Source: Gammaproteobacteria bacterium
GTDB lineage: Bacteria; Pseudomonadota; Gammaproteobacteria; G965277405
Assembly (NCBI GenBank): GCA_965277405.1
Contig: OZ255726.1
Span: 1,636,580-1,700,579, forward strand
DNA length: 64,000 nt
Reading direction: 5' to 3'
In this document: one piece after another, positions 1-61,958 of the stretch
Position numbering within the stretch: the first letter of the stretch is position 1
Layout: each line of letters begins with the position of its first letter
Notes under the pieces: model-generated
The model's input: the letters and a program-made list of their open reading frames with translations, nothing else
What the model was told of the DNA's origin: nothing
The model's database searches: none
Position numbers and translations under genes: made by a program

Positions 1-1118
1 TTGGCTATGATGCCTTGGCAGATGACAACAGTTTACCACTGTTGCAGCTCGCCAATATTGACCCTGCGGCAATTGCGGGAGTATTAGGGAAAATCGACAT
101 TGCTACCACGCTGTTTATTGTCGTGTCAAAATCTTTGCAAACCCAGGAAACCCATGCAAATTTGCAGGCGATTCGCCAATATTGGCAGCTGCATTATCCT
201 GAAGATGCTTTTTGGCAGCAAGCGATTGCGGTGACCGCCGCTTGGCAACAGGCGTTGCAGCTTGGGTTTAGGACAAACGCGATTGTGCCGATGTATGACT
301 GGATCGGTGGGCGGTTTTCGTTGTGGTCTGCCGCAGGGCTGAGTATCGCCATAGCAGTTGGCTGGGTGGCATTTAGTGGCTTGTTGACTGGTGGTAATAT
401 TATCGATGAGCATGCCCAGCACAGCCCCGCACAACAGAATATGCCGCTGACTATGGCATTGCTTGGATTTTGGTATAAGCAATATTGGCGCTGCCAAACG
501 GAAGCGTTGTTGGTGTATAGCCATCGGCTGCGCAAATTTCCTGAATATTGCCAGCAGTTGACAATGGAAAGCAACGGCAAGAGTGTGGATATTGATGGCA
601 AAGTGATTCACTACCCAACCGCCAGCATTGTCTGGGGTGGGGAGAATACTAATGGACAGCACGCATTCCACCAACTCCTCCACCAAGGTAGCCATGTTGT
701 ACCAGCAGATTTTATTCTGCCTTTGGTAACGGATACGCTCGATGGCGTCGACACTGCAGCGATGCACGCTGCATTGGTCGCCAATGCTTTGGCGCAGGCT
801 AAGGCGTTTTCAGCAGGCGAGCAGCCTGATAATCCGTATGGACAAGTTCCAGGCAATAAACCGTGTTCAATAATTAGTTTTGGTGCTGTTTCACCAATTA
901 GTGTCGGCGGGCTTGTGGCGTTGTATGAACATAAAACCGTGTTTGAGGCGCTGCTTTGCAACATCAATCCCTTCGATCAATTTGGCGTATTACTTGGTAA
1001 AAAACTCGCAACAAACATATTAACCAGCATGCACAACAGCCAACAAACGGACGTATTAACAACACGGTTATTGCGGCGGCATCGCCAATATAACGCAACC
1101 TTAGGAAGCTCTGATTAA
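1..1118 (+). CDS. pgi: glucose-6-phosphate isomerase, 5' end upstream of window
   Basis: ORF is open to the window edge. PGI motifs ESNGKSV and GENTNGQHAFHQLLHQG are present. The last 6 codons (LGSSD) and the TAA stop lie inside the RE295 copy starting at 1101. Confidence 0.9.
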   Translation, partial: GYDALADDNSLPLLQLANIDPAAIAGVLGKIDIATTLFIVVSKSLQTQETHANLQAIRQYWQLHYPEDAFWQQAIAVTAAWQQALQLGFRTNAIVPMYDWIGGRFSLWSAAGLSIAIAVGWVAFSGLLTGGNIIDEHAQHSPAQQNMPLTMALLGFWYKQYWRCQTEALLVYSHRLRKFPEYCQQLTMESNGKSVDIDGKVIHYPTASIVWGGENTNGQHAFHQLLHQGSHVVPADFILPLVTDTLDGVDTAAMHAALVANALAQAKAFSAGEQPDNPYGQVPGNKPCSIISFGAVSPISVGGLVALYEHKTVFEALLCNINPFDQFGVLLGKKLATNILTSMHNSQQTDVLTTRLLRRHRQYNATLGSSD

Positions 1119-1394
1119 GTCCATGACGGGCGAGACGGAGAAAAAACGCTGATGAAACTTAAGCGCAGTGCGCAGATAATACTGGTGGTCGTGTGGGTGT
1201 TGCCAAGTGCGGCAACGACGTTAGCACAGCGTTTTTTGCCGTCGTTGTGTTGAATATACTTTGGGTTTGCTGCAGCGGTACTTGCTGTGTTGCATCCCTG
1301 GGCGTATATGCTACGGCATGCGCTTAGCGCCTTGCAATCATCAGCAATTGCAGGCAAACCCGCTCCAGCAGCGAGTTAATCAGAGCTTCCTTAG
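1101..1394 (+). mobile_element. RE295 element, near-full copy 1
   Basis: Left end TTAGGAAGCTCTGATTAAGTCCATGACGGGCGAGACGGAG, right end GCGAGTTAATCAGAGCTTCCTTAG (inverted repeat). Flanked by TTAG on both sides. Confidence 0.9.
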
Positions 1395-1395
1395 A

Positions 1396-1653
1396 TTTTT
1401 ATCTGGTGATGAATACACAATTGCTGATATCGCGACATATCCGTGGTATGGGACATTGGTCATTGGTGAGCAATATGATGCGCAAGAGTTTCTTGATGTG
1501 CAAGGTTATACGCATGTTGCGCGCTGGGCTAATGAAATTCACAGCAGACCTGCTGTCATTCGTGGCTCGCGAGTGAATACAGCATGGGGACCAGCAGAAG
1601 AACAACTACATGAACGCCACAGCGCTGCTGATTTTACTACGTGTCCCAAGTAG
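1396..1653 (+). pseudogene. C-terminal ~85-aa remnant of a YghU/nu-class glutathione S-transferase, N-terminal part replaced by RE295
   Basis: FLSGDEYTIADIATYPWYGTLVIGEQYDAQEFLDVQGYTHVARWANEIHSRPAVIRG resembles the recalled E. coli YghU C-terminal domain. The reading frame upstream of 1396 is repeat sequence, with no start codon or N-terminal GST domain. Confidence 0.7.
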
Positions 1654-1669
1654 TGTTCATGTTGATTTG

Positions 1670-2455: not shown

Positions 2456-2750
2456 TTAGGGAAGCTCTGATTAAGTCCATGATGGGCGAGACGGAGAAAA
2501 AACGCTGATGATAACTAGGCGCAGTGCGCAGATAATACTGGTGGTATTATCAAGTGCTGCAACGACGTTAGCGCAGCGTTTTTTCCCGTCCTTCTGTTGA
2601 ATATACTTTGGGTTTGCGGCAATTGCTGTGCTTGCTGTGTTGCATCCCTTGGCGTATATGCTACGGCATGCGCCTGCGGAATGCGCCTTGCAATCATCAG
2701 CAATTGCCATCAAACTCGCTCCATCAGCGACTGAATCAGAGCTTCCTTAG
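2456..2750 (+). mobile_element. RE295 element, near-full copy 2
   Basis: TTAGGGAAGCTCTGATTAAGTCCATGATGGGCGAGACGGAG ... CATCAGCGACTGAATCAGAGCTTCCTTAG. Sits in the divergent gloB / aminotransferase intergenic region. Confidence 0.9.
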
Positions 2751-5920: not shown

Positions 5921-7498
5921 ATGCAAGACTCGACTCTACGGTTTAATAATTTTTTTACCCAAGAACTTCCAGCAGATAATGATCACAGCAATACCATTCG
6001 CCAAGTTGCAAACGCCTGCTTTTCTTGGGTCACCCCAACGCATTGCTCGCAACCAACGCTGCTTGCGCATTCAGCAGAAGTTGCAAAAATGCTGGCAATT
6101 CAAGTTGATGGCAGTTGGTTTTCTGATGTATTCGCTGGCAATAAAACTCTTGCAGGAATGCAGCCGTACGCGATGCGCTACGGCGGTCATCAATTCGGTA
6201 ACTGGGCAGGGCAACTTGGTGATGGTCGTGCAATTAACCTAGGTCAGTTGAATACAGCTGACCAGCAACACTTCACCTTGCAGTTAAAAGGAGCGGGGAA
6301 AACCCCATATTCACGCCACGCTGATGGCAGAGCCGTATTACGCTCCTCATTACGTGAATTCCTCTGCAGTGAAGCAATGCACCACCTTGGGATTCCAACT
6401 ACCAGAGCACTCTCACTCGTCCTCAGCGGCGATCAAGTTACCCGAGATATTATGTATAACGGCAATGTCGCAGCCGAACCTGGCGCCATCGTCTGCCGTG
6501 TTGCCCCGACGTTTTTACGGTTTGGTAGTTTTCAACTGCATACCGCCATGGGCGAACAGCTGCTGCTGCAACAACTTGCTGATTTCACCATTGCCCATTA
6601 CTTCCCAACTGTAGATGCGACCTCAGCAGAGAAATACATCCAATGGTTTGAGATAGTTGCCCAGCAAACAGCAAAAACTGTTGCCCATTGGCAGCGCGTT
6701 GGTTTTGTCCATGGTGTATTGAACACCGATAATATGTCGATAACTGGTGAGACAATCGACTACGGTCCATATGGATGGCTAGAGCCATACCAACCGAATT
6801 GGACACCAAATACTACAGACCGTGAATACCAGCGCTATGGATTTGCCAACCAACCGTATATCAGTCATTGGAATTTGGGAATGTTTGCCAACTCGCTGGT
6901 GCCGTTGCTGCGTGCAAGCAGCTCGTTGGTTGAGCAGCTCCAGCAAAAATTAGCAGGCTATCCAGGTGTGTATCAACACCATTGGCAGCACACTGCAGCC
7001 AGCAAGCTCGGGCTGGCGCGTTGGCAGAGTGCGTCTGACGAAAAACTCTACAGCACGCTAGAGCAATTGCTCGAACAATGCCAATTTGATTATGTGTTGT
7101 TTTTTCGCCAACTTGGCAATGCGCTGTCATTGCCAAATGACCAGGCGCTGCAACTCCTTGCGGCAACGAGCTATACAGCGCTGTCAACCGCACAACTCGA
7201 CGCTTGTCGCGATTGGTTGCGGCGATACCGTGCGCGTCTTGGTCGCCAAACAGCCCAGCAAATCACCGCGCAAATCACCGTGATGAATACAGTTAACCCA
7301 AAATATGTATTGCGCAACTACCTGGCGCATCAAGCAATTGAAGCCGCCCACGCTGGCGATTACAGCGTATTGCATACCTTGCAAGCGCTGTTGCGCACCC
7401 CATACGATGAACAACCAACCATGGAGCGCTTCGCAAAAAAACGCCCTGATTGGGCGGAAAACAAGGTCGGGTGCAGCAAATTATCGTGCAGTTCGTAA
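5921..7498 (+). CDS. selO: protein adenylyltransferase SelO (YdiU family)
   Basis: RYGGHQFGNWAGQLGDGRAI and HGVLNTDNMSI motifs. ATG at 5921 is preferred over the TTG at 5903 that overlaps cysS. Confidence 0.9.
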   Translation: MQDSTLRFNNFFTQELPADNDHSNTIRQVANACFSWVTPTHCSQPTLLAHSAEVAKMLAIQVDGSWFSDVFAGNKTLAGMQPYAMRYGGHQFGNWAGQLGDGRAINLGQLNTADQQHFTLQLKGAGKTPYSRHADGRAVLRSSLREFLCSEAMHHLGIPTTRALSLVLSGDQVTRDIMYNGNVAAEPGAIVCRVAPTFLRFGSFQLHTAMGEQLLLQQLADFTIAHYFPTVDATSAEKYIQWFEIVAQQTAKTVAHWQRVGFVHGVLNTDNMSITGETIDYGPYGWLEPYQPNWTPNTTDREYQRYGFANQPYISHWNLGMFANSLVPLLRASSSLVEQLQQKLAGYPGVYQHHWQHTAASKLGLARWQSASDEKLYSTLEQLLEQCQFDYVLFFRQLGNALSLPNDQALQLLAATSYTALSTAQLDACRDWLRRYRARLGRQTAQQITAQITVMNTVNPKYVLRNYLAHQAIEAAHAGDYSVLHTLQALLRTPYDEQPTMERFAKKRPDWAENKVGCSKLSCSS

Positions 7499-7604
7499 TA
7501 GTTTAAAAAAAATCCCCCAATACGCGATTATGGCGTATGATGAAATTATAAAATGTCTGCATCTGAGTTGCTGGCAAAAATCACAAACACATAAGGAGAA
7601 ACAT

Positions 7605-8639
7605 ATGAAAAAATCCATTCGCATACTGCGTATAATTGCCTGCTTAGCTATTGGCTTTAGTGCAATTTCAACGGCGTTTGCCGGAGCTACGATTGATGCC
7701 ATGAAAAAAAGAGGTAGCCTTAATTGTGGGGTTAACTCTGGATTGGAGGGGTTTTCTGCAATAGATTCTGATGGTCATTTCATCGGTTTTGATACGGACA
7801 TGTGTCGTGCAGTTGCCGTATCGATTCTTGGTGCTGGTGAAAAAGTTAATTTTATACCATTGACTGCGCAACAGCGTTTTACCGCGTTACAGTCTGGTGA
7901 GGTTGATATGGTTTCGCGTAATACGACATGGACATTATCACGTGATGCGTCGCTCGGTGGCATGTTTGCTGCTGTCACGTATTACGATGGGCAGGGGTAC
8001 ATGGTTCCTAAAAAATTGGGTGTTACCAGTGCTACCCAACTAAAAGGTGCGACGGTATGTGTTGAAGCCGGGACAACCACTGAAAAAAACTCAACTGACT
8101 ATTCGTACGCACATGGATTAAAATTAAAATCAGTTGTCTTTAATACTCTAGAAGCTGCTAGAGCGGCATATTTTTCTGGTCGTTGCTCTGTGTATACAAC
8201 GGATGCATCAGGGCTTGCTTCAACCCGCAACGCAGAAGCCAAAAACCCAGCTGATCATATTATTCTTCCAGAGATGATTTCTAAAGAACCTCTAGGTCTA
8301 ATGGTGCGGCGCGGTGATGATGAGTTTTTTACAATTGCCAAATGGGTAGTGTTTGGACTAGTTAATGCTGAAGAATACGGCATCACTCAGGCGAATGTAT
8401 TAGACAAACAAAAAAATGAGAAAGACCCTACTGTTATGCGCATGCTCGGCTCTTCTGAAGACACTGGTAGACTGCTCGGCCTTGATAAAGATTGGCTCGT
8501 TCGTCCCATCCTAGCTGTCGGCAATTATGGCGAGATTTTCGAACGTAACGTTGGTCCAAACACACCACTTGCACTGCCACGTGGTCTAAATGCTCTTTGG
8601 ACAGAAGGTGGCTTGATGTATGCACCGCCTATTCGATAA
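7605..8639 (+). CDS. aapJ: general L-amino-acid ABC transporter, periplasmic binding protein
   Basis: AAGGAG 7 nt upstream of the ATG at 7605. Signal peptide ends in AFAG. First gene of an aapJQMP-type operon. The track ORF 7305.. is a spurious upstream extension. Confidence 0.85.
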   Translation: MKKSIRILRIIACLAIGFSAISTAFAGATIDAMKKRGSLNCGVNSGLEGFSAIDSDGHFIGFDTDMCRAVAVSILGAGEKVNFIPLTAQQRFTALQSGEVDMVSRNTTWTLSRDASLGGMFAAVTYYDGQGYMVPKKLGVTSATQLKGATVCVEAGTTTEKNSTDYSYAHGLKLKSVVFNTLEAARAAYFSGRCSVYTTDASGLASTRNAEAKNPADHIILPEMISKEPLGLMVRRGDDEFFTIAKWVVFGLVNAEEYGITQANVLDKQKNEKDPTVMRMLGSSEDTGRLLGLDKDWLVRPILAVGNYGEIFERNVGPNTPLALPRGLNALWTEGGLMYAPPIR

Positions 8640-8832
8640 TTTCCCATGCGTACACTTTCTGCAGATTTACATAAACAACGATTAGCAACAACAGCAGTAT
8701 TGTCAATACTAGTATTGCAGTTGACATTTGCTAACCAGCGTTGTTGGAAAGTGCTTTATATGTAATTAGCAACCAAGGCTAGTATGACTGCTAGCCTTGT
8801 TTGTATTCAACATCGCAACATTGGGGGAATAT

Positions 8833-12822: not shown

Positions 12823-13860
12823 ATGAAAAAATTATTTTTCATTATAATCAGTACGCTTACGATCTTGGCTACTGGCTTAGGTATGGTTTCATCGGCGTTT
12901 GCTGGAGCCACGATCGATGCCATGAAAAAAAGAGGTAGCCTTAATTGTGGGGTTAACGCTGGGTTGGTTGGGTTTTCAGCGGTAGATTCTGATGGTCGAT
13001 TCTCTGGTCTTGATGCAGACGTGTGTAAGGCTATTGCCGCATCGATTCTAGGTTCTGGTGAAAAAGTTAATTTTGTACCATTGACTGCGCAACAGCGTTT
13101 TACCGCGTTACAGTCAGGCGAGATTGATATCATTTCACGCAATACAACATGGACATTGTCACGCGATGCTTCGCTCGGTGGCATGTTTACTGGTATCACG
13201 TATTACGATGGGCAAGGCTTCATGATTCCTAAAAAATTGGGTATTAGCAGCGCTATCAAGCTAAAAGGTGCGACGGTATGTGTTGAAGCTGGGACAACCA
13301 CTGAAAAAAACTTAACTGATTATTCGTACGCAAAAGGGTTAAAATTAAGACCAGTTGTCTTCGATTCTCAAGCCGCGGCTAGAGCGGCATATTTTTCTGG
13401 TCGTTGCGTTGCGTATACAACGGATGCATCAGGGCTTGCGTCAACCCGCAACGCTGAAGCCAAAAATCCAGATGACCATATAATTCTTCCAGAGATGATT
13501 TCTAAAGAACCGTTAGGTCCGATGGTGATGCGCGGTGATGATGAGTTTTTTACAATTGCCAAATGGGTAGTGTTTGGACTAATTAATGCTGAAGAATACG
13601 GTATCACTCAGGCGAATGTATTGGACAAACAAAAAAATGATAAAAACCCTACTATTATGCGCATGCTCGGCTCTTCTGAAGACACTGGTAGACTGCTAGG
13701 TTTGGATAAAGACTGGCTCGTGCGTGCCATCCAAGCCGTCGGAAATTATGGCGAGATTTTCGAACGCAACGTTGGTCCAAACACACCACTTGCACTGCCA
13801 CGTGGTCTAAATTCTCTCTGGACAGCAGGCGGGTTGATGTATGCACCGCCTATTCGATAA
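12823..13860 (+). CDS. aapJ: amino-acid ABC transporter periplasmic binding protein, paralog of 7605..8639
   Basis: AAGGAG upstream. The mature part is about 85% identical by eye to the first aapJ, and the signal peptide is diverged. Confidence 0.85.
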   Translation: MKKLFFIIISTLTILATGLGMVSSAFAGATIDAMKKRGSLNCGVNAGLVGFSAVDSDGRFSGLDADVCKAIAASILGSGEKVNFVPLTAQQRFTALQSGEIDIISRNTTWTLSRDASLGGMFTGITYYDGQGFMIPKKLGISSAIKLKGATVCVEAGTTTEKNLTDYSYAKGLKLRPVVFDSQAAARAAYFSGRCVAYTTDASGLASTRNAEAKNPDDHIILPEMISKEPLGPMVMRGDDEFFTIAKWVVFGLINAEEYGITQANVLDKQKNDKNPTIMRMLGSSEDTGRLLGLDKDWLVRAIQAVGNYGEIFERNVGPNTPLALPRGLNSLWTAGGLMYAPPIR

Positions 13861-13950
13861 TTGCCCAAGCGCGCACTTCTGCGGATTTTCATACACAACG
13901 ATTAGCAACAACAGCAGTATTGTCAATACTAGTATTGCAGTTGACATTTT

Positions 13951-14254
13951 CTAAGGAAGTTCTGATGAAGTCGCTGATGGAGCGAGTTTGCCTGCAATTG
14001 CAGATGATTGCAAGGCGCATACCGCAGGCGCATGTCGTAGCAAATACGCCAAGGGATGCAACACAGCAAACTTAAGCAATTGCCGCAAACCATAATATAT
14101 TCAACACAACGACGGGTAAATACGCTGCGATCGGTCGTTGCAGTACTTGATAATACCCACAAGTCACCACCAGTGTTTTCTGTGCATTGCGTATAGTTAT
14201 CATCAGCGTTTTTGCTCCGTCTCGCCAGTCATGGACTTAATCAGAACTTCTTAA
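13951..14254 (-). mobile_element. RE295 element, near-full but degenerate copy 3
   Basis: CTAAGGAAGTTCTGATGAAGTCGCTGATGGAGCGAGTTTGCC ... CGCCAGTCATGGACTTAATCAGAACTTCTTAA. Confidence 0.85.
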
Positions 14255-16901: not shown

Positions 16902-17193
16902 TAGGGAACCTCTGATTAAGTCCATGATGGGCGAGACGGAGAAAAAACGCTGATGATAACTAGACGCAGTGCGCAGATAATACTGGTGGTATTATCAAGT
17001 GCTGCAACGACGTTAGCGCAGCGTTTTTTCCCGTCCTTCTGTTGAATATACTTTGGGTTTGATGGTAGCGGTACTTGCTGTGTTGCATCCCTTGGCGTAT
17101 ATGCTACGGCATGCGCCTGCGGAATGCGCCTTGCAATCATCAGCAATTGCCATCAAACTCGCTCCATCAGCGACTTAATCATAGCTTCCTTAG
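16902..17193 (+). mobile_element. RE295 element, near-full copy 4
   Basis: TAGGGAACCTCTGATTAAGTCCATGATGGGCGAGACGGAG ... CATCAGCGACTTAATCATAGCTTCCTTAG. Confidence 0.9.
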
Positions 17194-17207: not shown

Positions 17208-17226
17208 AAAATCAGAGCTTCCCTAA
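17208..17226 (+). mobile_element. extra solo RE295 right-end fragment
   Basis: AAAATCAGAGCTTCCCTAA lies 14 bp after copy 4 and abuts the rhodanese stop codon (complement of 17228-17230). Confidence 0.6.
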
Positions 17227-17644: not shown

Positions 17645-17691
17645 TATGGGGTCTCTGGGTAAATCTATACAGGTAGTAGTTTGTTGTAAAT

Positions 17692-17725
17692 GGCGATGAT
17701 TACAAGGCGCATTATGCTGAATCGC
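17692..17725 (-). mobile_element. short internal RE295 fragment
   Basis: GATGATTACAAGGCGCATT matches the right-arm complement GATGATTGCAAGGCGCATT with one mismatch. It overlaps the stop of the 17712..18296 gene. Confidence 0.5.
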
Positions 17726-24521: not shown

Positions 24522-24547
24522 GAGCGAGTTAATCAGCGATTCCTTAG
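24522..24547 (+). mobile_element. solo RE295 right end
   Basis: GAGCGAGTTAATCAGCGATTCCTTAG. It contains the ileS stop codon (complement of 24544-24546). Confidence 0.7.
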
Positions 24548-42919: not shown

Positions 42920-44018
42920 ATGGAAATGGAACGCAATCAAATCAACAATGAAATAAAAAATCGTTTGGCGCAAGTACACGCGCTGCGGAGGTATCTTTGA
43001 CTACGATGCCAAACTGCAACGCTTGACGGAACTCAAAGATTTATTGAGCAATCAATCCTTGTGGCAGGACCGACAACGCGCACAACAACTCAGCAAAGAG
43101 GAAGCACACATTGATCGAGTCATTACCCCGATCAATCAAGCCTTGCAACAGCTCGACGCGCTCGACGAGTTGTTGGAAATGGCGTGCATGGAAAATGACG
43201 ATGCAGTTATTGCAGATGTTGTTGCGGATTTGCAAGGCGTGGGCAAAACTATTGATGATTTAGAGTTTCAGCGGATGTTCAATAATCCACATGACCCAGC
43301 CAATGCGTATATCGACATCCAAGCAGGATCTGGGGGCACCGAAGCGCAGGATTGGGCAAATATGTTGTTGCGGATGTATTTGCGCTGGGCGGAGTCGCAT
43401 CAGTTTAAAACAGAAATGCTCGATTATTCACACGGCGATGTAGCTGGCATTAAAAACGCAACAATTTTGGTGAGCGGGTCGTACGCGTTTGGTTGGGCAC
43501 GCACAGAAACAGGGGTCCATCGCTTGGTGCGCAAATCACCATTTGATTCAAACAGCAAACGCCATACTTCATTTGCCTCGGTATTTGTCTCACCAGAAAT
43601 TAACGATGATATTGAAATCGATGTCAACCCAGCAGATTTGCGGGTCGATACTTATCGCTCCAGCGGTGCAGGTGGGCAGCATGTCAACACCACAGATTCT
43701 GCGGTGCGGATTACCCATCTGCCAACGGCAACGGTTGTCCAATGCCAAAACCAGCGCTCACAGCATCAAAACCGTGATAAAGCGATGCAGCAGTTGCGCG
43801 CCAAGTTGTATGAAATTGAAATGCTAAAACAACGCGCGGAGCGCGATGAGGTAGAAGCCAATAAATCTGACATTGGTTGGGGCAGCCAAATTCGTTCATA
43901 TGTCCTTGATGATGCGCGGATTAAAGACTTGCGCACGGGGCATGAAACAGGCAATACTCAAGCGGTATTGAATGGTGATATTGACGCTTTTCTTATTGAA
44001 AGTCTGCGGACTTTATAA
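42920..44018 (+). CDS. prfB: peptide chain release factor 2, requires programmed +1 frameshift at 42998
   Basis: Frame 0 reads [26 protein letters not shown] then TGA. The +1 frame continues [13 protein letters not shown]... SPF (RKSPFDS) and GGQ (GAGGQHVN) motifs are present. Confidence 0.93.
42987..43001 (+). promoter_or_regulatory. prfB autoregulatory +1 frameshift site
   Basis: GGAGG TAT CTT TGA C: an SD-like element 3 nt upstream of the CTT-TGA-C slippery/stop context, as in E. coli prfB. Confidence 0.9.
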
Positions 44019-44665
44019 TGGCGCAGCAGCAACGTATCATCCCATCCCATGCTGGATTAGCGCTTGAACTTAGGCATGATGATTTTGGTATGCATCCACG
44101 TGCCATGGTTGTTTGTCATCCGCTGCCTACTGCAGGCGGTTCCATGGATAATAAAGTTGTCACGACAGTCCAGCGAGCCGCCCAATTGTGTGACATGCCG
44201 TGTGTGCGCTTTAATTTTCGAGGTGTTGGCAACAGTACCGGCACCTTTGATAATGGCGTTGGAGAAACCACAGATTTGCAGTCAACTGTAGCTTGGCTTG
44301 CCAACAACAGCAGCGTTGCATCAATCCTGCTGGCGGGATTCTCGTTTGGAGCTGCAGTAGCGCTGCGCGGTGTTGAGATGCTGGCGCTACCTGTCTGGCA
44401 CTTGTTGCTAGTCGCTCCGCCAATAGGAGTCAAAGAATATGTGTTTACTGAGCAATTGACTGTTCCAGCAACAATTATTCAAGGTGATGCTGATGAAATT
44501 GTTGATGCGAATAATGTGTTTAAATGGTCGCAACGTTGCGTGCCAGCGCCACAGGTTGTGCGGATGGTTGGTGCGAGTCATTTTTTTCATAGACGCTTGG
44601 TTGAGTTGCGCCAGCATGTGATAGATGAGGTGCTGCGACCTGCTCAGAAAACTCTGACTAAGTAG
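44018..44665 (+). CDS. alpha/beta-fold hydrolase
   Basis: 215 aa with nucleophile elbow GFSFGA. The ATG overlaps the prfB stop. The last ~7 codons (QKTLTK*) lie in a degenerate RE295 end. Confidence 0.65.
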   Translation: MAQQQRIIPSHAGLALELRHDDFGMHPRAMVVCHPLPTAGGSMDNKVVTTVQRAAQLCDMPCVRFNFRGVGNSTGTFDNGVGETTDLQSTVAWLANNSSVASILLAGFSFGAAVALRGVEMLALPVWHLLLVAPPIGVKEYVFTEQLTVPATIIQGDADEIVDANNVFKWSQRCVPAPQVVRMVGASHFFHRRLVELRQHVIDEVLRPAQKTLTK

Positions 44666-44712
44666 CCGATGAAGTGAGTTTGTTAGCAGATGCTGTTGTT
44701 GATGCCCGCACC
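44645..44712 (-). mobile_element. degenerate RE295 right-end fragment (inverted)
   Basis: AGAAAACTCTGACTAAGTAGCCGATGAAGTGAGTTTGTTAGCAGATGCTG compared with GGAAGCTCTGATTAAGTCGCTGATGGAGCGAGTTTGCCTGCAATTGCTG. Confidence 0.55.
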
Positions 44713-46050: not shown

Positions 46051-46086
46051 CTAATAAGGAATCGCTGATTAAGCAGATGATTGGCA
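46051..46086. mobile_element. degenerate RE295 end-like fragment inside the cluster
   Basis: CTAATAAGGAATCGCTGATTAAGCAGATGATTGG compared with CTAAGGAAGCTCTGATTAAGTCGCTGATGGAG. Confidence 0.4.
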
Positions 46087-46246: not shown

Positions 46247-49123
46247 ATGCGAAACACCACACTCAGTACAACAGTAACTAGATTTGCCGTGTTCGTCAGT
46301 TGTATCCTGTTAGCCGTAGGCTGCGCTACACAGCAGGCTACACAGCACAAGCCACAGCAGGCTAGTCAACAGCACCAGCTACAGCAGGCAAAAAAACAGC
46401 ACCAGCTACAGCAAGCTCAACAGCACCAGCCCAACGCAGAGTTGCGGAACGCCACCAGAGTGGCGTTCAAGGAGCGAATCCGTGTTATTAAGCTGTTGCG
46501 CACCATTAATGGGCATAGTAACCATGTATACTCAGTCGCCTTCAGTCCAGATGGTAAGACCCTCGCCAGCGGATCTCGCGATGGTATTCTCAAACTCTGG
46601 AATCCGCGCAGCGGTAAGTTGTTGCGCTCCATGAATGGGCATAATAGTGACATGGTAACGTCAGTCGCCTTTAGTCCAGATGGTCAGACCTTCGCCAGCG
46701 GATCTGGGGATAATACTATCAAACTCTGGAATCCGCGCAGCGGCAAGCTGTTGCGCACCATTAATGGGCATAGTGACCATGTAGACTCAGTCGCCTTCAG
46801 TCCAGATGGTAAGACCCTCGCCAGCGGATCTCGCGATGGTATTCTCAAACTCTGGAATCCGCGCAGCGGTAAGTTGTTGCGCTCCATTAATGGGCATAAT
46901 AGTTACATGGTAACGTCAGTCGCCTTTAGTCCAGATGGTAAGACCCTCGCCAGCGGATCTCGCGATGGTATTCTCAAACTCTGGAATACGCGCAGCGGCA
47001 AGTTATTGCGCACCCTGAATGGGCATAGTGACCATCTATACTCAGTCGCCTTCAGTCCAGATGGTAAGACCCTCGCCAGCGGATCTCGCGATGGTATTCT
47101 CAAACTCTGGAATCCGCGCAGCGGTAAGTTGTTGCGCACCATGAATGGGCATAATAGTCACATGGTAACGTCAATCGCCTTTAGTCCAGATGGTAAGACC
47201 CTCGCCAGCGGATCTGGGGATAATACTATCAAACTCTGGAATCCGCGCAGCGGTAAGTTGTTGGGCACCACTAAAGTGCAGAGTAACGATGTATTTTCAG
47301 TCGCCTTCAGTCCAGCTGGAACCCTCGCCAGCGGATCTACTGATAATACTATCAAACTCTGGCAATTACCACCGAGGCTAGATGCCAATGACTTGAATAA
47401 TGACTGGAATAAGTTTGTCGTCAGTTGGAATCGTGGCGACGCAGGGCTAATAGAATTGTACCAGCTACAACGCAAATACCCAGAGGATGCCGTCATAGGC
47501 GATGCATACGTCAAAGCGAGTGTCGCTAGCCCCTACGAAAGTGGCCGAGTTGCTGTTTATTTGCACCGGCGGCAGCTTGACAGCACTAGCTGGCGGACAA
47601 CTACCGCCTTTATCCAACAACTGGCTTCTGACTGGCTCAACCTTAAGGAAATAATCAAACCAGCGAAAATCATAATGCCTACGTTACCGCCAGCTGTAGA
47701 GCTGACACAGGAAAATTGGGAAGGGGATAGTGAATTCGAAACTCGAGTTGCTCAGCTGAACAAGGCGCGTCAAGCGCGGATAAACCAACTTCAAGCAGAC
47801 TACAGACACAAGGTCGAAGTGCGCAACAGCAAAGTTAGCAAGCTTGAACGCCTACAACAGCAACGCCATAATCAACTAGCAAGCTATGTACAAGGCATAC
47901 TTGATTATAGCCTTGAAACGCAGCCGCCAGCACTAGACAAAGTAATAATCAACCAACAAACACTTGATCTTTATGCTGATCTGGTGTTCAAAGGAACCCT
48001 TGTTGGTCGCTATAAACTGGCGCAGGCGCCACTGAAGCTGCGCAAACAGGCTATGACTAACAGCAAAAGTGTGAAAGTTCTACCAAATATTGAGTTAAGC
48101 GACACCAATGATTTTCGTGTAACTTCAATCACTATCTTGCATGATGATCAAAGATGGCTAGCGCAGGCAAGCGAGCAGCAGCTACAACACACGAATACCC
48201 CTTTGGTTGCTACCATCGGCAACGCCGGCGAAACGCGTGAACTGAGTAGTATCTCCCTACTGCAAAAGCAAAACCCCAACCTAGTCGATGTCAACTCAGT
48301 GGGGACGGTTCAGTACAAAGACGGCACCACAGCACTCACCCGCTATCAAGACGATCTCACTCCGCTGGTGCAACAATTAGCCCAAGCACCAATAGACCAA
48401 AGCAAATGGCTGTTCGTCATCGGTGCAGAACGCTATCAGGAGACAGATAACATCCTTTTTGCCAGAAGAAGTGCCGAGAACTTTGCCCTCGCCGCCAAAA
48501 AATCACTTGGCATCGACGCTGGTCACACCATCACCCTCTACGACGAGCAGGCAACCAGTGGACAGATCAAAACCAAGCTCAAAAAGCTGCTGCGTGATGG
48601 CATTAGTTCAGGTGACAGCATTATCATTTACTACAATGGTCACGGCTTGCCGGTCAGAGAACAGGACGATACCCCCTATATGCTGCCGACCGATATGATT
48701 CCCGACTTTGTCAGCGATGAGCCTTTTTTTAAACTTGAAAATATGTATGCTTTACTCGCTAAATCGAAAGCAGGCAACGCAATAGTGATAATGGACAGTT
48801 GCTTTACTGGCGGCGCGGACGGCAGGTCAGTCATCAAAGGTGTGGCAGCAGCGAGGCTATCACCAAAAAAACTTTTGATAGACAAGAGCAAACTCATCGT
48901 TATGACAGCAGGGACAGACAAGCAATACTCCACCGCCTTCAAAGACAAAGGCTACCGACTTTTTAGCTACTACCTGATTAAAAGGCTGGTAGCAAACAAA
49001 CCGCAAACGGTTGAAGATTGGTTTGAATCGGTACAAAGTCAGGTCAAAACAACTTCGCGCCAAATAGGAGGCTCGCTCAGCTATCAGGATCCGCAGTTGC
49101 TGGGGAGCAATCAGCAGCTATAG
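46247..49123 (+). CDS. lipoprotein with Q-rich tether, seven WD40 repeats, long linker and C-terminal caspase-like (peptidase C14) domain
   Basis: Strong SD (GGAGGGGG). Lipobox LLAVGC (Cys26). Seven units of NGH..SVAFSPDGKTLASGS.D..IKLWN. The C14 pattern is WLFVIGAERY...IIIYYNGHG...AIVIMDSCFTGG, with the catalytic His and Cys present. Confidence 0.85.
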   Translation: MRNTTLSTTVTRFAVFVSCILLAVGCATQQATQHKPQQASQQHQLQQAKKQHQLQQAQQHQPNAELRNATRVAFKERIRVIKLLRTINGHSNHVYSVAFSPDGKTLASGSRDGILKLWNPRSGKLLRSMNGHNSDMVTSVAFSPDGQTFASGSGDNTIKLWNPRSGKLLRTINGHSDHVDSVAFSPDGKTLASGSRDGILKLWNPRSGKLLRSINGHNSYMVTSVAFSPDGKTLASGSRDGILKLWNTRSGKLLRTLNGHSDHLYSVAFSPDGKTLASGSRDGILKLWNPRSGKLLRTMNGHNSHMVTSIAFSPDGKTLASGSGDNTIKLWNPRSGKLLGTTKVQSNDVFSVAFSPAGTLASGSTDNTIKLWQLPPRLDANDLNNDWNKFVVSWNRGDAGLIELYQLQRKYPEDAVIGDAYVKASVASPYESGRVAVYLHRRQLDSTSWRTTTAFIQQLASDWLNLKEIIKPAKIIMPTLPPAVELTQENWEGDSEFETRVAQLNKARQARINQLQADYRHKVEVRNSKVSKLERLQQQRHNQLASYVQGILDYSLETQPPALDKVIINQQTLDLYADLVFKGTLVGRYKLAQAPLKLRKQAMTNSKSVKVLPNIELSDTNDFRVTSITILHDDQRWLAQASEQQLQHTNTPLVATIGNAGETRELSSISLLQKQNPNLVDVNSVGTVQYKDGTTALTRYQDDLTPLVQQLAQAPIDQSKWLFVIGAERYQETDNILFARRSAENFALAAKKSLGIDAGHTITLYDEQATSGQIKTKLKKLLRDGISSGDSIIIYYNGHGLPVREQDDTPYMLPTDMIPDFVSDEPFFKLENMYALLAKSKAGNAIVIMDSCFTGGADGRSVIKGVAAARLSPKKLLIDKSKLIVMTAGTDKQYSTAFKDKGYRLFSYYLIKRLVANKPQTVEDWFESVQSQVKTTSRQIGGSLSYQDPQLLGSNQQL
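46508..47375 (+). repeat. tandem 126/129-bp coding repeats (7 WD40 blades), near-identical at the DNA level
   Basis: Units start at 46508, 46634, 46763, 46889, 47018, 47144 and 47273. Alternating 126- and 129-bp units give a super-repeat of about 255 bp. Confidence 0.9.
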
Positions 49124-51754: not shown

Positions 51755-51784
51755 AGCGTTGTTTTGGTGTTATACATGCGCTGT

Positions 51785-52039
51785 TGCGGTACTTGCTGTG
51801 TTGCAACCTTTGGTGTATATGCTCCGGCATGCGCCTGCGGAATGCGCCTTGCAATCATCAGCAATTGCAGCAATTGCAGCAAACCGTTGTATATTCAACA
51901 GAATGACGGGAAAAAACGCTGCGATAACGTCGTTGCAGCACTTGATAATACCACCAGTATTATCAAGTGTTGCGCTTCAGTTATCATCAGCGTGTTTGCT
52001 TAGTCTCGCCCATTATTGAGTTAATCAGAGCTTCCTTAA
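51785..52039. mobile_element. rearranged RE295 copy 11 (right-arm interior in + orientation fused to left half in - orientation; only one terminal repeat)
   Basis: GCGGTACTTGCTGTGTTGCAACC..CCTTGCAATCATCAGCAATTGCAG, then CAATTGCAGCAAACCGTTGTATATTCAACAGAATGACGGGAAAAAACGCTGCG...CCCATTATTGAGTTAATCAGAGCTTCCTTAA. Confidence 0.8.
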
Positions 52040-56328: not shown

Positions 56329-56628
56329 GTGAAAAAAAGTGAAATTCATCTGGATCTGGTAAAACAATTACCTGCTCTTGACCATGGTAAAGCCCAGTTG
56401 GCTGTGGATGTGATTATTGCAACGATTGCAAAAGGTCTGGCAGATGGTGATTTTTTACACGTTAAAGGTTTTGGTAGATTATACATGCGTGCCCGCAAAC
56501 CGTGTACGTTATACAACCCAAAGCTGAATAAAAAAGTAGAAGTTGGTCCGCGACTTACCTGTTTATTTCGACCTGCAGCATCTTTACAGCAACGTTTAAA
56601 TAACAACGTTACTGGGCAATATGATTAG
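56329..56628 (+). CDS. ihfB: integration host factor beta-like (HU/IHF family), divergent
   Basis: GTG start. VKGFGRLYMRARKP..NPK..KKVEV..RLTCLFRPAASL parallels the IHF-beta layout. The position after rpsA supports the call. Confidence 0.75.
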   Translation: MKKSEIHLDLVKQLPALDHGKAQLAVDVIIATIAKGLADGDFLHVKGFGRLYMRARKPCTLYNPKLNKKVEVGPRLTCLFRPAASLQQRLNNNVTGQYD

Positions 56629-56938
56629 GTTGATCAAACGGTTATGCTATGTTGCTATAATTGTATTACTGTTTTTTTTGGCGATGTTATTTACTCGCAA
56701 CAATGCAACAGAGCTTGTCATAGATTTTTGGGTGTGGCAAACTCCGCCTGTCTACGCTGGGGTGTGGTTCATCATTATTTTTGTTGCAGGCATGACCCTG
56801 ACGGCTATTCCTTGGGCTATCCAGCGCAGTTTTTATCGTCACAGCGTTACCAGCCTCAAACGCAAGCTGGCAGCAGCAAACACGCTTAAGGAACCTCTGA
56901 TTAATTCCATGATGGGCGAGACGGAGAAAAAACGCTGA
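56621..56938 (+). CDS. lapA: LapA-like (YciS/DUF1049) inner-membrane protein with RE295-derived C-terminal tail
   Basis: Two TM segments and synteny after ihfB. The last 17 codons plus stop ([17 protein letters not shown]) are read from the RE295 left arm. Confidence 0.65.
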   Translation: MIRLIKRLCYVAIIVLLFFLAMLFTRNNATELVIDFWVWQTPPVYAGVWFIIIFVAGMTLTAIPWAIQRSFYRHSVTSLKRKLAAANTLKEPLINSMMGETEKKR

Positions 56939-57174
56939 TGATAACTAGACGCAGTACGCAGATAATACTGGTGGTCTTGTGGGTATTGCCAAGTGCTGCA
57001 ACGACGTTATCGCAGCGTTTTTTCCCGTCCTTCTGTTGAATATACTTTGGGTTTGCTGCAGCGGTACTTGCTGTGTTGCATCCCTTGGCGTATATGCTAC
57101 GGCATGCGCCTTGCAATCATCAGCAATTGCAGGCAAACTCGCTCCATCAGCGAGTTAATCAGAGCTTTCCTAAG
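56886..57174 (+). mobile_element. RE295 element, near-full copy 12
   Basis: TTAAGGAACCTCTGATTAATTCCATGATGGGCGAGACGGAG ... CATCAGCGAGTTAATCAGAGCTTTCCTAAG. Confidence 0.9.
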
Positions 57175-57201
57175 CTATAACGCAACACAATAGTTTTGCT
57201 G

Positions 57202-57927
57202 ATGGCGCTGTATTGTATTGCCGATCTTCATCTTGACACGCCAACTCATAAAAATGCGCGCTTTGAACAATGGTGCACGGCTATTCAAAATGATTGCGAG
57301 CATTTATATATTCTTGGTGACCTGTTTGAAGCATGGATTGGTGACGATGCTATGGTATCGTGGCATCAGCAAATTGCTCAGATGCTGGCAACTATGTCGT
57401 ATGCTATTTCGCTTCAGCACGGCAATCGTGATTTCTTGTTAGGACAGCAGTTTGTAGCACTTGCTGGCGCACAGTTGCTTGGTGATGTGTATTACCGACA
57501 GGCATCGTCGCAGGCTCAGGCATTGTTAATGCTCCATGGTGATACGTTATGCACTGATGATGTGCAGTATCAACAATTACGCCAACGGCTACGTAGTCAA
57601 CAATGGCAAGAAACATTTTTGCAAAAAAGTGTGGATGCACGTGCTCAAGAAGCGCTTGATTTGCGCAAGCGCAGCAAGCAAGCCGTTCAGGAAAAATCAC
57701 CAGCAATTATGGATGTCAATGCCGCCGCATGTGCGGCGCTGTTTGCCCAGTATCCATCCGTTAATTTAATGGTGCATGGGCATACGCATCGACCTTTTGT
57801 ACATATATATCCTGCCGATAAACATCGTATTGTTGTGGGTGATTGGCGCGAAGCAGGTTTTTATTTTGCGCGGGTTGATGCGCATGATTGCACATTGCAT
57901 TATCAGGCTTGGCATGAGGTAGATTAG
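57202..57927 (+). CDS. lpxH: UDP-2,3-diacylglucosamine diphosphatase
   Basis: IADLHL, GDLFEAWIGDD, GNRDFLL and HGHTHRP metallophosphatase motifs. Confidence 0.92.
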   Translation: MALYCIADLHLDTPTHKNARFEQWCTAIQNDCEHLYILGDLFEAWIGDDAMVSWHQQIAQMLATMSYAISLQHGNRDFLLGQQFVALAGAQLLGDVYYRQASSQAQALLMLHGDTLCTDDVQYQQLRQRLRSQQWQETFLQKSVDARAQEALDLRKRSKQAVQEKSPAIMDVNAAACAALFAQYPSVNLMVHGHTHRPFVHIYPADKHRIVVGDWREAGFYFARVDAHDCTLHYQAWHEVD

Positions 57928-57936
57928 CCGTATATG

Positions 57937-58060
57937 CAATTTGCTGACGCTTGCTGGCCATCCCTTGGCGTATATGCTACGGCATGCGCTTAGCGCCTTG
58001 CAATCACCAGCAATTGCTAATTAACTCGCTCCATCAGCGAGTGAATCAGAGCTTCCTTAG
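57937..58060 (+). mobile_element. RE295 element, right half only (copy 13)
   Basis: ..CATCCCTTGGCGTATATGCTACGGCATGCGCTTAGCGCCTTGCAATCACCAGCAATTGC...CATCAGCGAGTGAATCAGAGCTTCCTTAG. Confidence 0.85.
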
Positions 58061-58480
58061 CTACAACGAAGATTTACTCTTTGCTGATTTAGAGCAATTT
58101 AAGCAAAAACTGGCTAACTGGTTAGGGAAACTCTGATTAAGTCCATGATGGGCGAGACGGAGAAAAAACGCTGATGATAACTTAAGCGCAGTGCGCAGAT
58201 AATACTGGTGGTATTATCAAGTGCTGCAACGACGTTAGCGCAGCGTTTTTTTCCGTCCTTCTGTTGAATATATGATGGTTTGCTGCAATTGCTGCGCTTG
58301 CTGTGTTGCATCCCTTGGCGTATATGCTACGGCATGCGCTTAGCGGTTTGCGCCTTGCAATCATCAGCAATTGCAGGCAAACTCGCTCCATCAGCGACTT
58401 AATCAGAGCTTCCTTAGTGTGGTACAACTATGAGCGACCTCATCATTCACATAACAAAAACCACCTATTCAAGCTATGCT
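58061..58480 (+). pseudogene. rve-type (IS3/IS481-like) transposase C-terminal remnant, split by RE295 copy 14
   Basis: The left piece is ..YNEDLLFADLEQFKQKLANW (58061-58121) and the right piece is VWYNYERPHHS.. (58418-). Removing the element restores ANWLVWYNYERPH in frame. Confidence 0.55.
58122..58417 (+). mobile_element. RE295 element, near-full copy 14
   Basis: TTAGGGAAACTCTGATTAAGTCCATGATGGGCGAGACGGAG ... CATCAGCGACTTAATCAGAGCTTCCTTAG, with TTAG on both flanks. Confidence 0.9.
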
Positions 58481-59437: not shown

Positions 59438-60124
59438 ATGTTCACATTACAAATTTCAATTTTACGCTGGGGGGTTGCACACACTGCCGTTGTTATAACA
59501 ATGCTGTTAGGCGCAACCGTATCGCGGGCAGCAAATATTGAAGGTGCGGTAGAGAATGTCGGTGGCGGTATTGCGGTTGTTGCCTCACATAGCGCAGCTG
59601 GGTTGAGCAATACAGGTTTCCCAACACATCTTTTCATCCAGGGTGCTAATAATTTAATACGGGTGGAATATTTAAAGTATGGTACATATTCCAGTACGGC
59701 TAGTGCCAGCACAGATTATCAAAACGAAGCAGTACTGGGGTATGCAAACTTTGAATATTTATTGCGTGCGCGTAGAGGCTCAATTTTGGGGAGAACAAAA
59801 CTGTATGGATCGGTTGGTCTTGGGCTATTTCGTTCTACAGTAACAAACTTTAGTTCTACAGCAGTAAACCCTGGGCTAATTAACTTCTCAAATGTCCAGC
59901 ACAATAAATCAGATTATAATATTGGTTTTACTGTTGCAGGCGGTATGCGTTATTTTCTTGACCCGAAATTTTTTATTGGTGGTGAAATAAAATATTTGAA
60001 TGCATACATTCAATATGATAAAGGAACTGTGTCAAAACGTGATATTGGCGGAATATTCTTCAATGTATTACTCGGCTACCGGTTATCAAGCAGTGCTGAT
60101 GTCAGTCAAAAAGTTGATACGTAA
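59438..60124 (+). CDS. putative outer-membrane beta-barrel protein
   Basis: Signal peptide ..TVSRAANIEG. Alternating beta-strand pattern with aromatic girdle residues (GGMRYFLDPKFFIGGEIKYL). No family is certain. Confidence 0.5.
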   Translation: MFTLQISILRWGVAHTAVVITMLLGATVSRAANIEGAVENVGGGIAVVASHSAAGLSNTGFPTHLFIQGANNLIRVEYLKYGTYSSTASASTDYQNEAVLGYANFEYLLRARRGSILGRTKLYGSVGLGLFRSTVTNFSSTAVNPGLINFSNVQHNKSDYNIGFTVAGGMRYFLDPKFFIGGEIKYLNAYIQYDKGTVSKRDIGGIFFNVLLGYRLSSSADVSQKVDT

Positions 60125-60184
60125 CATTAAGCAGTACATCCATACAATGCTGGTATCATCCATCCATCGTACAGTTCTTGTAGC

Positions 60185-61639
60185 ATGCAGCGACGCATCC
60201 GTCGAGTAGCGAGTCATAAGTTTATTGGTGATCTAGATACCGCGCTGACATCGTATATTAAAATAGCGAATACCAAGAACAGCTTTATATTTGAATCGTT
60301 GCAAGGTGGCGAGTTATGGGGACGGTATTCATTTATAGGTCTGCCCAGCAGTGAATTTATTACGGTTACCTGCGGCGTACTCAACCATCAAGCTGGAACA
60401 CAAACTGTGTATGCAGGCAAGCACAATGATCCCTTTGCATACATCGAAAAATTCATAGATAGTTGGGTTATAGAAACTGATGAAGCGCTGCCAAAGTTTG
60501 CTGGCGGGCTTGTTGGCTATATTGGCTACGACTGCATCGGTTATATAGAAAAAAAATTACTCAGCCAACTGCAAAAACCTGACACGGTTGGCGTGCCTGA
60601 TATTTTTTTGCTGGTGTGTGAAGAGTTATTGGTTATTGATAACATCAGCCATACACATCAGTTCATAAAATTATATAACCCTGAGTTGATAGATCATAGT
60701 CAAGCGGCAGCAACCTTGCATGGATATGAAGCGCAAATGGTCAAAAGCTCGGTTTGCTACACTGATTTTGCTACCTTGCAATATAGTAATGCCAGCATTT
60801 CACCAGAAGATGTACACGCGACCAGCGATTTTAGTGAACATGACTATAAAGCGGCGGTCGAAATAATAAAAAAACACATTCAAGCTGGTGATGTAATGCA
60901 AGGGCTACCATCACAGCGGATGGCAATTCCATGGCGTACCAATCCCATTCAGTTATACCGTGCATTGCGATTTATCAACCCATCACCGTATATGTATTAC
61001 ATCAACTTTGGTGATTTTAGCGTTGTTGGTGCAACACCTGAAGTATTGGTGCGTTGTCAAGATAATCAGGTGGTGATTCGCCCCATTGCAGGCACAAGAC
61101 CGCGTGGTGCAACTCCAGCCGCAGATATAGCTATGGAACAAGAGTTATTGGCAGACCCCAAGGAGCTTGCTGAACATACTATGCTGATTGATTTAGCTCG
61201 TAACGATGTTGGCAAGGTCGCAAAGATAGGTAGCGTGCTGGTGACTGACACCATGTTCATCGAGCGCTATTCGCATGTGATGCATATTGTCTCAAGTGTT
61301 AGCGGTAGATTACGGGCAGATACTTCGACGATAGCTGTGTTGCAAGCGGCATTTCCAGCAGGAACGCTGAGCGGTACTCCTAAAGTCCGTGCGATGGAAA
61401 TCATCAATGAAATTGAACCATATAAACGCGGTATCTATGGTGGTTGTGTTGGCTTTTTAGGGTGGAATCAGAGCCTGGAGATGGCAATTGCAATTCGTAC
61501 TGCGATTATTAAAGACGGTATGTTATATATTCAAGCAGGCGGTGGGATTGTTGCAGATTCTGACGCTGAAAATGAATGGCAAGAAACCTTAAACAAACGC
61601 AAAGCGATGTTTCAAGCTGTGAAAATGTGTAATTTTTAA
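60185..61639 (+). CDS. trpE: anthranilate synthase component I
   Basis: FIFESLQGGELWGRYSFIG (LLES-type feedback region), GTLSGTPKVRAMEII and GGGIVADSD. Confidence 0.92.
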   Translation: MQRRIRRVASHKFIGDLDTALTSYIKIANTKNSFIFESLQGGELWGRYSFIGLPSSEFITVTCGVLNHQAGTQTVYAGKHNDPFAYIEKFIDSWVIETDEALPKFAGGLVGYIGYDCIGYIEKKLLSQLQKPDTVGVPDIFLLVCEELLVIDNISHTHQFIKLYNPELIDHSQAAATLHGYEAQMVKSSVCYTDFATLQYSNASISPEDVHATSDFSEHDYKAAVEIIKKHIQAGDVMQGLPSQRMAIPWRTNPIQLYRALRFINPSPYMYYINFGDFSVVGATPEVLVRCQDNQVVIRPIAGTRPRGATPAADIAMEQELLADPKELAEHTMLIDLARNDVGKVAKIGSVLVTDTMFIERYSHVMHIVSSVSGRLRADTSTIAVLQAAFPAGTLSGTPKVRAMEIINEIEPYKRGIYGGCVGFLGWNQSLEMAIAIRTAIIKDGMLYIQAGGGIVADSDAENEWQETLNKRKAMFQAVKMCNF

Positions 61640-61657
61640 GAATGCAGACAGTTATGC

Positions 61658-61958
61658 CTAAGGAAGCTCTGATTAACTCGCTGATGGAGCGAGTTTGCCT
61701 GCAATTGTTGATGATTGCAAGGCGCAAACCTCTAAGCGCATGCCGTAGCATATACGCCAAAGGATGCAACACAGCAAGTACTGCTGCAGCAAACCCAAAG
61801 TATATTCAGCACAACGACTGGAAAAAAGCGGTACTAACGTCGTTGCAGCACTTGGCAGCACCCACAAGACCACCAATATTATCTGCGCACTGCGTCTAGT
61901 TATCATCAGCGTTTTTTCTCCGTCTCGCCCGTCATGGACTTAATCAGAGATTCCCTAA
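61658..61958 (-). mobile_element. RE295 element, near-full copy 15
   Basis: CTAAGGAAGCTCTGATTAACTCGCTGATGGAGCGAGTTTGCC ... CGCCCGTCATGGACTTAATCAGAGATTCCCTAA, with CTAA on both flanks. Confidence 0.9.

Follow-up and report, generated by a model that had tools for sequence, protein, structure and literature searches.

What enables a short repeat to occupy so many of the spaces between the housekeeping genes of a bacterial chromosome, and why does that repeat fold as strongly as it does? The question is raised by a stretch of 64,000 nucleotides (64 kb; the window) from contig OZ255726.1 of a gammaproteobacterium (assembly GCA_965277405.1), in which a repeat of about 290 bp, termed RE295, recurs in full and broken copies. 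The window is otherwise that of an ordinary gammaproteobacterial chromosome, with pgi, glnS, ileS, a tRNA-Leu gene, tig-clpP-clpX-lon-ppiD and rpsA. Taken together, our analysis suggests, with a probability of about 80%, that RE295 is a MITE (miniature inverted-repeat transposable element) of the IS5 group that is mobilised in trans, targets YTAR sites, accumulates at gene ends, belongs to an old family and contains a two-hairpin core in which base pairing is conserved. Relative to an earlier note on this DNA, made from the sequence alone, the IS5-group assignment and YTAR target, an explanation for the gene-end positions, the two-hairpin fold and the membership in a set of MITEs with conserved interiors are new here.

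Ends and target sites of the IS5 group

The limits of RE295 were set by blastn (with the copy at 2460 as query), an nhmmer profile and a covariance model, and all three returned the same set. It comprises 11 full copies of 254-301 bp, with pairwise identities of 81-96% (mean, 89%), and about 12 fragments or solo ends; the total of 4,219 bp amounts to 6.6% of the window and to 27% of its DNA outside long open reading frames (ORFs), and 18 of the 36 intergenic gaps hold a piece. Every copy has its own unique flanks, in conserved housekeeping loci. No reading frame is conserved through the copies and no ORF is kept.

The reference copy (2460-2746, plus strand) begins with GGAAGCTCTGATTAAGTC and finishes with GACTTAATCAGAGCTTCC, as does the copy at 1104-1390 (plus strand). 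These ends form a terminal inverted repeat (TIR) of 18-19 bp, GGAAGCTCTGATTAAGTCC; the 18-nt end, with up to two mismatches, has 29 matches in the window versus 0.01 expected from shuffles. A scan with the end pattern of genomes from many phyla, one per species, yielded at least 116 loci (L001-L116), among which an element of 1,183 bp (L053, 378-1560; also L114) is bounded by RE295-like ends, GGAAACTCTGATTAATTCC. This insertion sequence (IS) is flanked by GTAG on both sides and encodes a 318-aa transposase that matches NCBIfam NF033581 (IS5 family transposase; E = 6e-108) and shares ~50% identity with those of IS5 and ISKpn26. Apart from two variable positions, the RE295 TIR agrees with the ends of this IS, and 14 of the first 19 nt of RE295 equal those of the IS5 left end, GGAAGGTGCGAACAAGTCC.

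The flanks of the full copies point to the same group. Three copies have TTAG on both sides (2460-2746; 30022-30319 and 58126-58413, both plus strand), one has CTAA/CTAA (61662-61954, minus strand) and one has TTA(G)/TTAG; four others share three of four bases (TTAA/CTAA and similar), and two have unrelated flanks. No match was seen between the flanks of the copy at 23065-23365 (minus strand). The duplication is thus 4 bp and of the YTAR type (TTAG, CTAA, TTAA), and unequal flanks are consistent with mutation or with recombination between copies. By ISfinder descriptions, 4-bp duplications at YTAR-type targets are a trait of the IS5 group.

With a length below 500 bp, multiple copies, no transposase, a TIR and flanking duplications, RE295 has all the features of a MITE. 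Because its ends are of IS5 type, its flanks are of YTAR type, no transposase lies in the window (tblastn with the L053 transposase; best E = 1.3) and no frame is kept, RE295 can be classed from its sequence as a non-autonomous IS5-group MITE, with a partner transposase that, if extant, would be encoded outside the 64 kb.

These results sustain most of what the earlier note had proposed. The 11 near-full copies that it listed were all present by blastn, nhmmer and the covariance model, its 12 fragments were all recovered (down to the weak pieces at 17208 and 46058), and its hand tally of ~4 kb, or 6-7% of the window, agrees closely with the measured total. It had also held that no ORF is frame-conserved, which is borne out by a longest open frame that shifts between copies via indels, and that the window contains no transposase, in line with the tblastn result. 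Its reading of RE295 as a MITE-like, non-autonomous TIR element gains from the IS5-type ends, the YTAR duplications, the lack of ORF and transposase and the frequency of truncated or rearranged copies. A longer element with the same TIRs and a transposase, which the note had pointed to as a further lead, is absent from the window and present in another genome, in the form of the 1,183-bp IS. Finally, its remark that the density is unusually high for a bacterium fits a 2024 review (PMC10969869), according to which nothing comparable to the 8-10% MITE density of plants has been observed in prokaryotes, although the basis here is 64 kb only.

Ends of the RE295 type are not confined to RE295. Among the matches listed (at least 116 loci), they delimit numerous unrelated short elements, 63-400 bp long and most often of 150-161 bp, from Acidobacteriota, Oscillospiraceae, Deltaproteobacteria and other groups, and only four are full ISs with a transposase; the RE295 interior is absent from these matches.

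Insertion at gene ends, decay and rearrangement

Why, then, are RE295 pieces so often found at the 3' ends of genes? The stop codons of glnS, ileS and lon, all TAA, directly adjoin an element end and constitute the left copy of the duplication: a left half of RE295 (TIR, hairpin A [see below] and spacer; 21793-21985, plus strand) begins right after glnS, a solo TIR (24526-24543, minus strand) adjoins ileS, and a solo end (34397-34420, minus strand) comes right after lon. At five further genes, the stop codon lies inside element sequence, 11-49 nt in, and the last residues are therefore element-encoded. The pgi frame ends at TAA 1116-1118, within the left TIR of the copy at 1104-1390, and clpP at TGA 30030-30032, within that of the copy at 30022-30319; the tig stop codon (29080-29082) is inside a collapsed element (29058-29119, plus strand) that consists of a degenerate left end and a right TIR. 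Likewise, an end fragment (44646-44700, minus strand) holds the stop codon of ORF 44018-44665, and ORF 56621-56938, which has a weak LapA-like match, extends 49 nt into the full copy at 56890-57169 (plus strand). In addition, a right half (57924-58056, plus strand) begins at the stop codon of ORF 57196-57927, which thus lies at the fragment edge, and a solo TIR remnant (17208-17222, minus strand) starts 5 nt past the stop codon of a rhodanese gene. With TAA or TAG in the target, elements come to stand at gene ends, and the TIR itself carries stops in two frames (GAT TAA and CTC TGA). We read the gene-end placement as target preference together with survival of harmless insertions. Other contexts include divergent genes on either side (copy at 18381-18673, plus strand) and convergent ones (copy at 61662-61954).

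RE295 pieces are packed most visibly around clpP. A full copy with a ~45-nt deletion in hairpin B (29125-29378, plus strand) lies between tig and clpP, and two pieces separate clpP from clpX, i.e., the copy at 30022-30319 and a right half (hairpin B and right TIR; 30502-30622, plus strand) upstream of clpX. The stretch from tig to clpX (29040-30660) thereby holds four pieces of ~730 bp in all, in a gene cluster that is usually compact. A scan of this region found no enrichment of promoter- or terminator-like signals in the RE295 pieces.

The family looks old and decaying, and its pieces point to recombination as well: full copies are 4-19% divergent, and truncation, collapse or rearrangement has affected many of the others. 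The copy at 16905-17189 (plus strand) is still 96% identical to the reference copy; at the other extreme are the halves at 21793, 30502 and 57924, the collapsed element at 29058-29119, an internal fragment with hairpin A and without ends (22439-22545, minus strand), a weak internal fragment of the hairpin B region (17672-17725, minus strand) and a degenerate solo TIR with four mismatches (46058-46075, plus strand). One copy (51780-52035, minus strand) is rearranged: it keeps its left end and hairpin A intact, carries hairpin B with an inverted interior and lacks the right end, which is the pattern expected of recombination between palindrome arms.

One candidate for an empty site was considered and rejected. 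Two paralogous genes for solute-binding proteins (SBP_bac_3; 7305-8734 and 12823-13954), which are 85% identical over 300 nt, share a 78-nt tail (8657-8734 and 13877-13954, 95% identical), and the full copy at 13955-14251 (minus strand) begins at the exact end of this homology. The duplicated stretch stops precisely at the CTAA that starts the copy, so that homology is lost at the insertion point and the first tail cannot stand in for an unoccupied target. This coincidence of duplicate end and MITE hints at a MITE-associated rearrangement.

A predicted two-hairpin fold

The copy at 2460 folds with z-scores of -9.4 to -11 relative to shuffles, whether treated as DNA or RNA and on both strands. 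In the predicted fold, the ends pair over ~28 bp and close a junction from which hairpin A (element positions ~31-131) and hairpin B (~150-258) emerge; each is ~100 nt long, and B approximates the reverse complement of A. For the reference copy, this places the left TIR at 2460-2477, hairpin A at ~2490-2590, hairpin B at ~2609-2717 and the right TIR at 2729-2746. The RE295 ends base-pair in every predicted fold. Hairpin A contains the motif GCAAGGCGCGG...CCGCAACGCC, and hairpin B the same motif in reverse complement, GGCGTTGCGG...CCGCGCCTTGC. Substitutions are unevenly distributed along the element, with the block GCGCCTTGCAATCATCAGCAATTGC having 2 versus 19 expected, which is significant after allowing for ~260 windows. 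The 11 window copies display two compensatory pairs and many one-sided breaks.

Relatives in other genomes and metagenomes

A covariance model, R1, was constructed on the predicted fold with the window copies as input. The same ends bound elements of 260-276 bp in Halothiobacillus (L068), in Thiomicrorhabdus (L050) and in metagenome-assembled genomes of Burkholderiales and others (L088, L095, L096); these elements have motifs in common with RE295, their stems differ in sequence and remain complementary, and R1 scores them at 73-119 bits. An element with other ends, TACTCTTTCAACTTAATTTTGAC, and a CTAG duplication (L094) reaches 116 bits. Scores of 55-75 bits are obtained for ~160-bp elements with RE295-type ends, which align to the ends and hairpin A, with hairpin B absent; to judge by these alignments, RE295 is the two-module relative of widespread one-module MITEs.

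A second metagenome scan, baited with the core motif, gave 120 loci, in which conservation of the motif is partly a matter of sample selection. About 30 of them are full two-hairpin elements (48-129 bits with R1), with many different termini and with flanks that are mostly TAA, TTA, TAG or CTAG. No transposase was found near ~45 recovered elements. Two members from metagenomes (L217, L231) lie in DNA of 77-80% G+C, and the core therefore spans a very wide range of base composition. Another member (L096, 1440-1839) has an extra structured insert of ~125 nt between its hairpins, which may be a nested insertion.

RE295 proper was not found outside the window, either among the matches listed in the genome scan, in a metagenome scan with an RE295-specific 25-mer or in 72,556 plasmids, where neither RE295 nor the L088 element had a blastn match. 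In Rfam searches, only the tRNA reaches a gathering score in the window, and permissive searches returned nothing relevant at E up to 10 (RE295 and the L088 element) or up to 1 (four metagenome elements). Full-text literature searches for the terminal repeat, the core motifs and IS5-type MITEs with conserved structure turned up no account of the family. Likening the core by eye to dif/Xer sites, integron attC sites or 5S, signal recognition particle and RNase P RNAs gave resemblances too weak to retain. Nor is the core supported as the leftover ends of a parent IS: R1, run with filters off on eight autonomous elements of the IS5 group, gave at most 11.8 bits, so that these lack the core, and RE295 resembles the L053 IS over only ~35 nt beside the right end.

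Conservation of pairing in the core

Is the fold itself conserved? Across eight lineages, with one strand each, 91% of 813 cells were paired and 86 of the 109 pairs had changes in both partners, versus 36-41% and 22-31 pairs when partners were slid. Across 34 lineages, 90% were paired, with both-side changes in 108 of the 109 pairs. The counting tool applied to the stored alignment, which includes both strands of each element, returned 90.2% paired and a covariation score of 0.768; shuffles gave 53% and 0.17, and slid partners 36-38% and ~0.1. Folding without any alignment gave, for 31 of 34 elements, a terminal stem and two hairpins, almost all of 96-119 nt, usually with a mini-hairpin of 7-9 nt between them and in one element with a larger insertion. 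On account of the effect size and the alignment-free result, we accept that pairing in the core is conserved.

The strand on which the structure would act was considered as well. The external elements contain G-U and A-C pairs at 37:13, an outcome that the model favours; this excess was rejected as evidence for an RNA strand, being model-biased, and the difference between forward and reverse folding energies changes sign from lineage to lineage. Overall, the two strands of the external elements fold about equally well, and the dyad symmetry of the core (B approximating the reverse complement of A) fits a constraint on both strands.

With respect to structure, the earlier note was right in part. 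It held that the repeat could fold into one long hairpin: the stability is there, and the predicted form is instead a terminal stem with two hairpins of ~100 nt. It had also named covariation as what would mark the unit as a functional RNA rather than a mobile repeat. Covariation is indeed present across genomes, and the mobile-element reading nonetheless stands, because the relatives too have inverted termini and TAA/TAG-type flanks. RE295 carries a structurally constrained core inside a MITE.

Several observations weigh against this account of RE295 as an IS5-group MITE with a pairing-conserved core. Of the 11 full copies, two show no recognisable duplication and in four just three of the four flanking bases agree, the sole paralogous site (8657-8734 versus 13877-13954) shows no clean insertion, and no cognate transposase lies within the 64 kb of a contig of ~2.17 Mb. 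Covariation is weak inside the window, as expected from recent common descent. As the model fitted the external alignments to the structure, the pair counts are somewhat inflated, and the metagenome sample was baited with the core motif, so that conservation of the motif arises partly by selection. The core, being absent from the eight autonomous IS5-group elements, is also not simply a remnant of parent-IS ends.

Alternative explanations

Given so stable a fold, RE295 might instead be chiefly a multiplied structured noncoding RNA gene or cis-acting RNA, whose terminal repeats serve only as the closing stem. The very strong predicted stability, the covariation and architecture kept across 34 elements of other genomes, and invariant blocks in the window copies such as GCGCCTTGCAATCATCAGCAATTGC would all be explained. 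Yet this closing stem is, bar two variable positions, the end of an IS5-family element with a transposase, and the copies bear target-site duplications, occur in both orientations and in all intergenic contexts, and are frequently reduced to halves and solo ends. Moreover, Rfam holds no match even at E = 10, promoter- and terminator-like sites are not enriched, and with B as the reverse complement of A and strands that fold about equally, no RNA strand is preferred. In view of these ends, duplications and fragments, and as neither strand is preferred, we regard the RNA explanation as improbable, and much less likely than that of a MITE.

Compensatory pairing in a high-copy intergenic hairpin repeat is also known from REPINs (PMC3116915), and RE295 could by analogy be a REP/REPIN-type palindrome moved by a RAYT (IS200/IS605-like Y1) transposase. 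Against this, RE295 has the 18-bp TIRs of a DDE-type IS and 4-bp duplications, and it is built as a ~290-bp unit, not as a pair of 20-40-bp REPs. To our knowledge, no REPIN with a TIR or target duplication has been reported, and we consider such an origin very improbable. Even less credence is due to a small protein-coding family or its remains, of the kind of the DUF1658 peptides of Coxiella QMITE1: open frames of 44-91 codons do exist in most copies, and four copies would encode a similar reverse-strand peptide, but the frame, strand and extent of the longest open stretch vary by copy through indels, and conservation tracks base pairing, not codons. Least probable of all, to the point of being negligible, is that the copies are artefacts of assembly or duplication; the high density is all that would suggest it, whereas the copies differ by 4-19% and have unique flanks in conserved housekeeping loci.

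Proposed mechanism

The repeats, their ends, the duplications, the gene-end positions and the covariation are shown; mobilisation in trans, the direction of selection and the part played by the hairpins are what we infer, as follows. The enzyme would be an IS5-group DDE transposase whose gene lies outside the window; binding to the 18-19-bp terminal repeats (GGAAGCTCTGATTAAGTCC), it would insert the element at YTAR sites (TTAG, CTAA, TTAA), with the 4 bp being duplicated. Insertion exactly at a stop codon would leave that codon in the left duplicate, and the TIR itself supplies stops in two frames. Insertions at the 3' ends of genes would thus be tolerated, leading to a build-up there and in other intergenic DNA. 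The two-hairpin core would have been inherited from a widespread lineage of IS5-type MITEs (~160 bp with one hairpin, ~250-300 bp with two), its pairing being maintained through compensatory changes. On the reading that we prefer, hairpins formed in single-stranded DNA or in RNA, and from either strand, would help propagation or tolerance, perhaps by joining the two ends or by providing a compact structure in read-through transcripts.

A bolder version, which we put forward only tentatively and think somewhat more likely wrong than right, is that the core is a functional structured module, acting as single-stranded DNA in transposition or as RNA in transcripts, that rides IS5-family MITEs across lineages while the ends are swapped to suit the local transposase. 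The elements would then form a MITE superfamily defined by structure. MITEs are usually seen as short-lived deletion products defined by their ends; in the two-hairpin set, the ends vary and the interior is conserved and covarying. If true, this would bear on what, beyond terminal repeats, makes nonautonomous elements successful, and the two-hairpin core would offer a concrete structure with a possible role in transposition or transcript processing.

Host and significance

A single MITE family makes up about a quarter of the noncoding DNA seen here, sits within housekeeping operons (tig-clpP-clpX-lon) and has altered the final codons of a number of essential genes. Other features of the window bear on its host. 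The best non-self homologue of the IleRS encoded by ileS (24544-27375) is 53% identical among 5.8 billion proteins, and the contig measures 2,174,577 bp; these data suggest a host with a small genome that belongs to a deeply isolated lineage of gammaproteobacteria. Directly after pgi and the MITE at 1104-1390, a glutathione S-transferase C-terminal domain stands without its N-terminal domain (1395-1653) and is probably a gene remnant. The MITE load, gene remnants and isolated IleRS fit a small genome undergoing erosion. The window also encodes a 958-aa WD40-repeat protein (46247-49123), unusual in bacteria, in whose gene DNA units of 255 nt (46490-47299, 92-94% identical) and of 126-129 nt are repeated in tandem; this suggests a recent expansion of WD40 blades.

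Comparison with known systems

RE295 shares with IS5 of E. coli and its group the form of the terminal repeat (GGAAG..T..GA..AAGTCC) and a 4-bp duplication of the YTAR type. It differs in being ~290 bp long and transposase-free, and in a two-hairpin core that the eight autonomous elements lack. Also comparable are the ~160-bp MITEs of other Gamma- and Betaproteobacteria (e.g., L029, L047, L097, L098, L100, L136, L140, L148), which resemble RE295 in their terminal repeat (GGAACCTCTGATTAAT/GTC), their CTAA/TTAA-type flanks and a hairpin A with CAAGGCG...GCAAC; they have one hairpin module, in contrast to the two, inverted, of RE295. The architecture of RE295 recurs in the two-hairpin elements of ~250-300 bp (e.g., L068 of Halothiobacillus, L050 of Thiomicrorhabdus, L088, L095, L096, L094, L121, L123, L172, L191), in which a terminal stem closes two ~100-nt hairpins joined by a short linker; they have the core motifs and R1 scores of 73-129 bits. 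However, many of them have quite other terminal repeats (e.g., TACTCTTTCAACTTAATTTTGAC, GAGCCTGTTATGAAC, GAACGTGTTTACGATC, GCCCTTTACCCATAAGTC), some have 3-bp TAA/TTA flanks rather than 4-bp ones, and they are much more G+C-rich than RE295.

ERIC, Correia (NEMIS) and REPIN sequences are likewise short, hairpin-forming intergenic repeats, and they differ from RE295, with its IS5-type ends and YTAR duplications, in their ends and targets. Correia elements duplicate TA, whereas REPINs depend on RAYT and are not known to have a TIR or duplication. Conservation of pairing has been reported for ERIC; it has also been reported for REPINs (PMC3116915).

The nearest published parallel to RE295 is that of the QMITEs of Coxiella burnetii, i.e., QMITE1 (~400 bp, with a 21-bp TIR) and QMITE2 (~190 bp, with 7-9-bp direct repeats) (PMC5896051). 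Their sizes, ends and duplications are not those of RE295, sequence similarity was neither seen nor claimed, and together they occupy 0.9% of the Coxiella genome versus the 6.6% of the window taken up by RE295. Like RE295, however, they are MITEs of a small gammaproteobacterial genome; they form stable hairpins, and their sequences overlap functional genes at the 3' end (PMC5896051).

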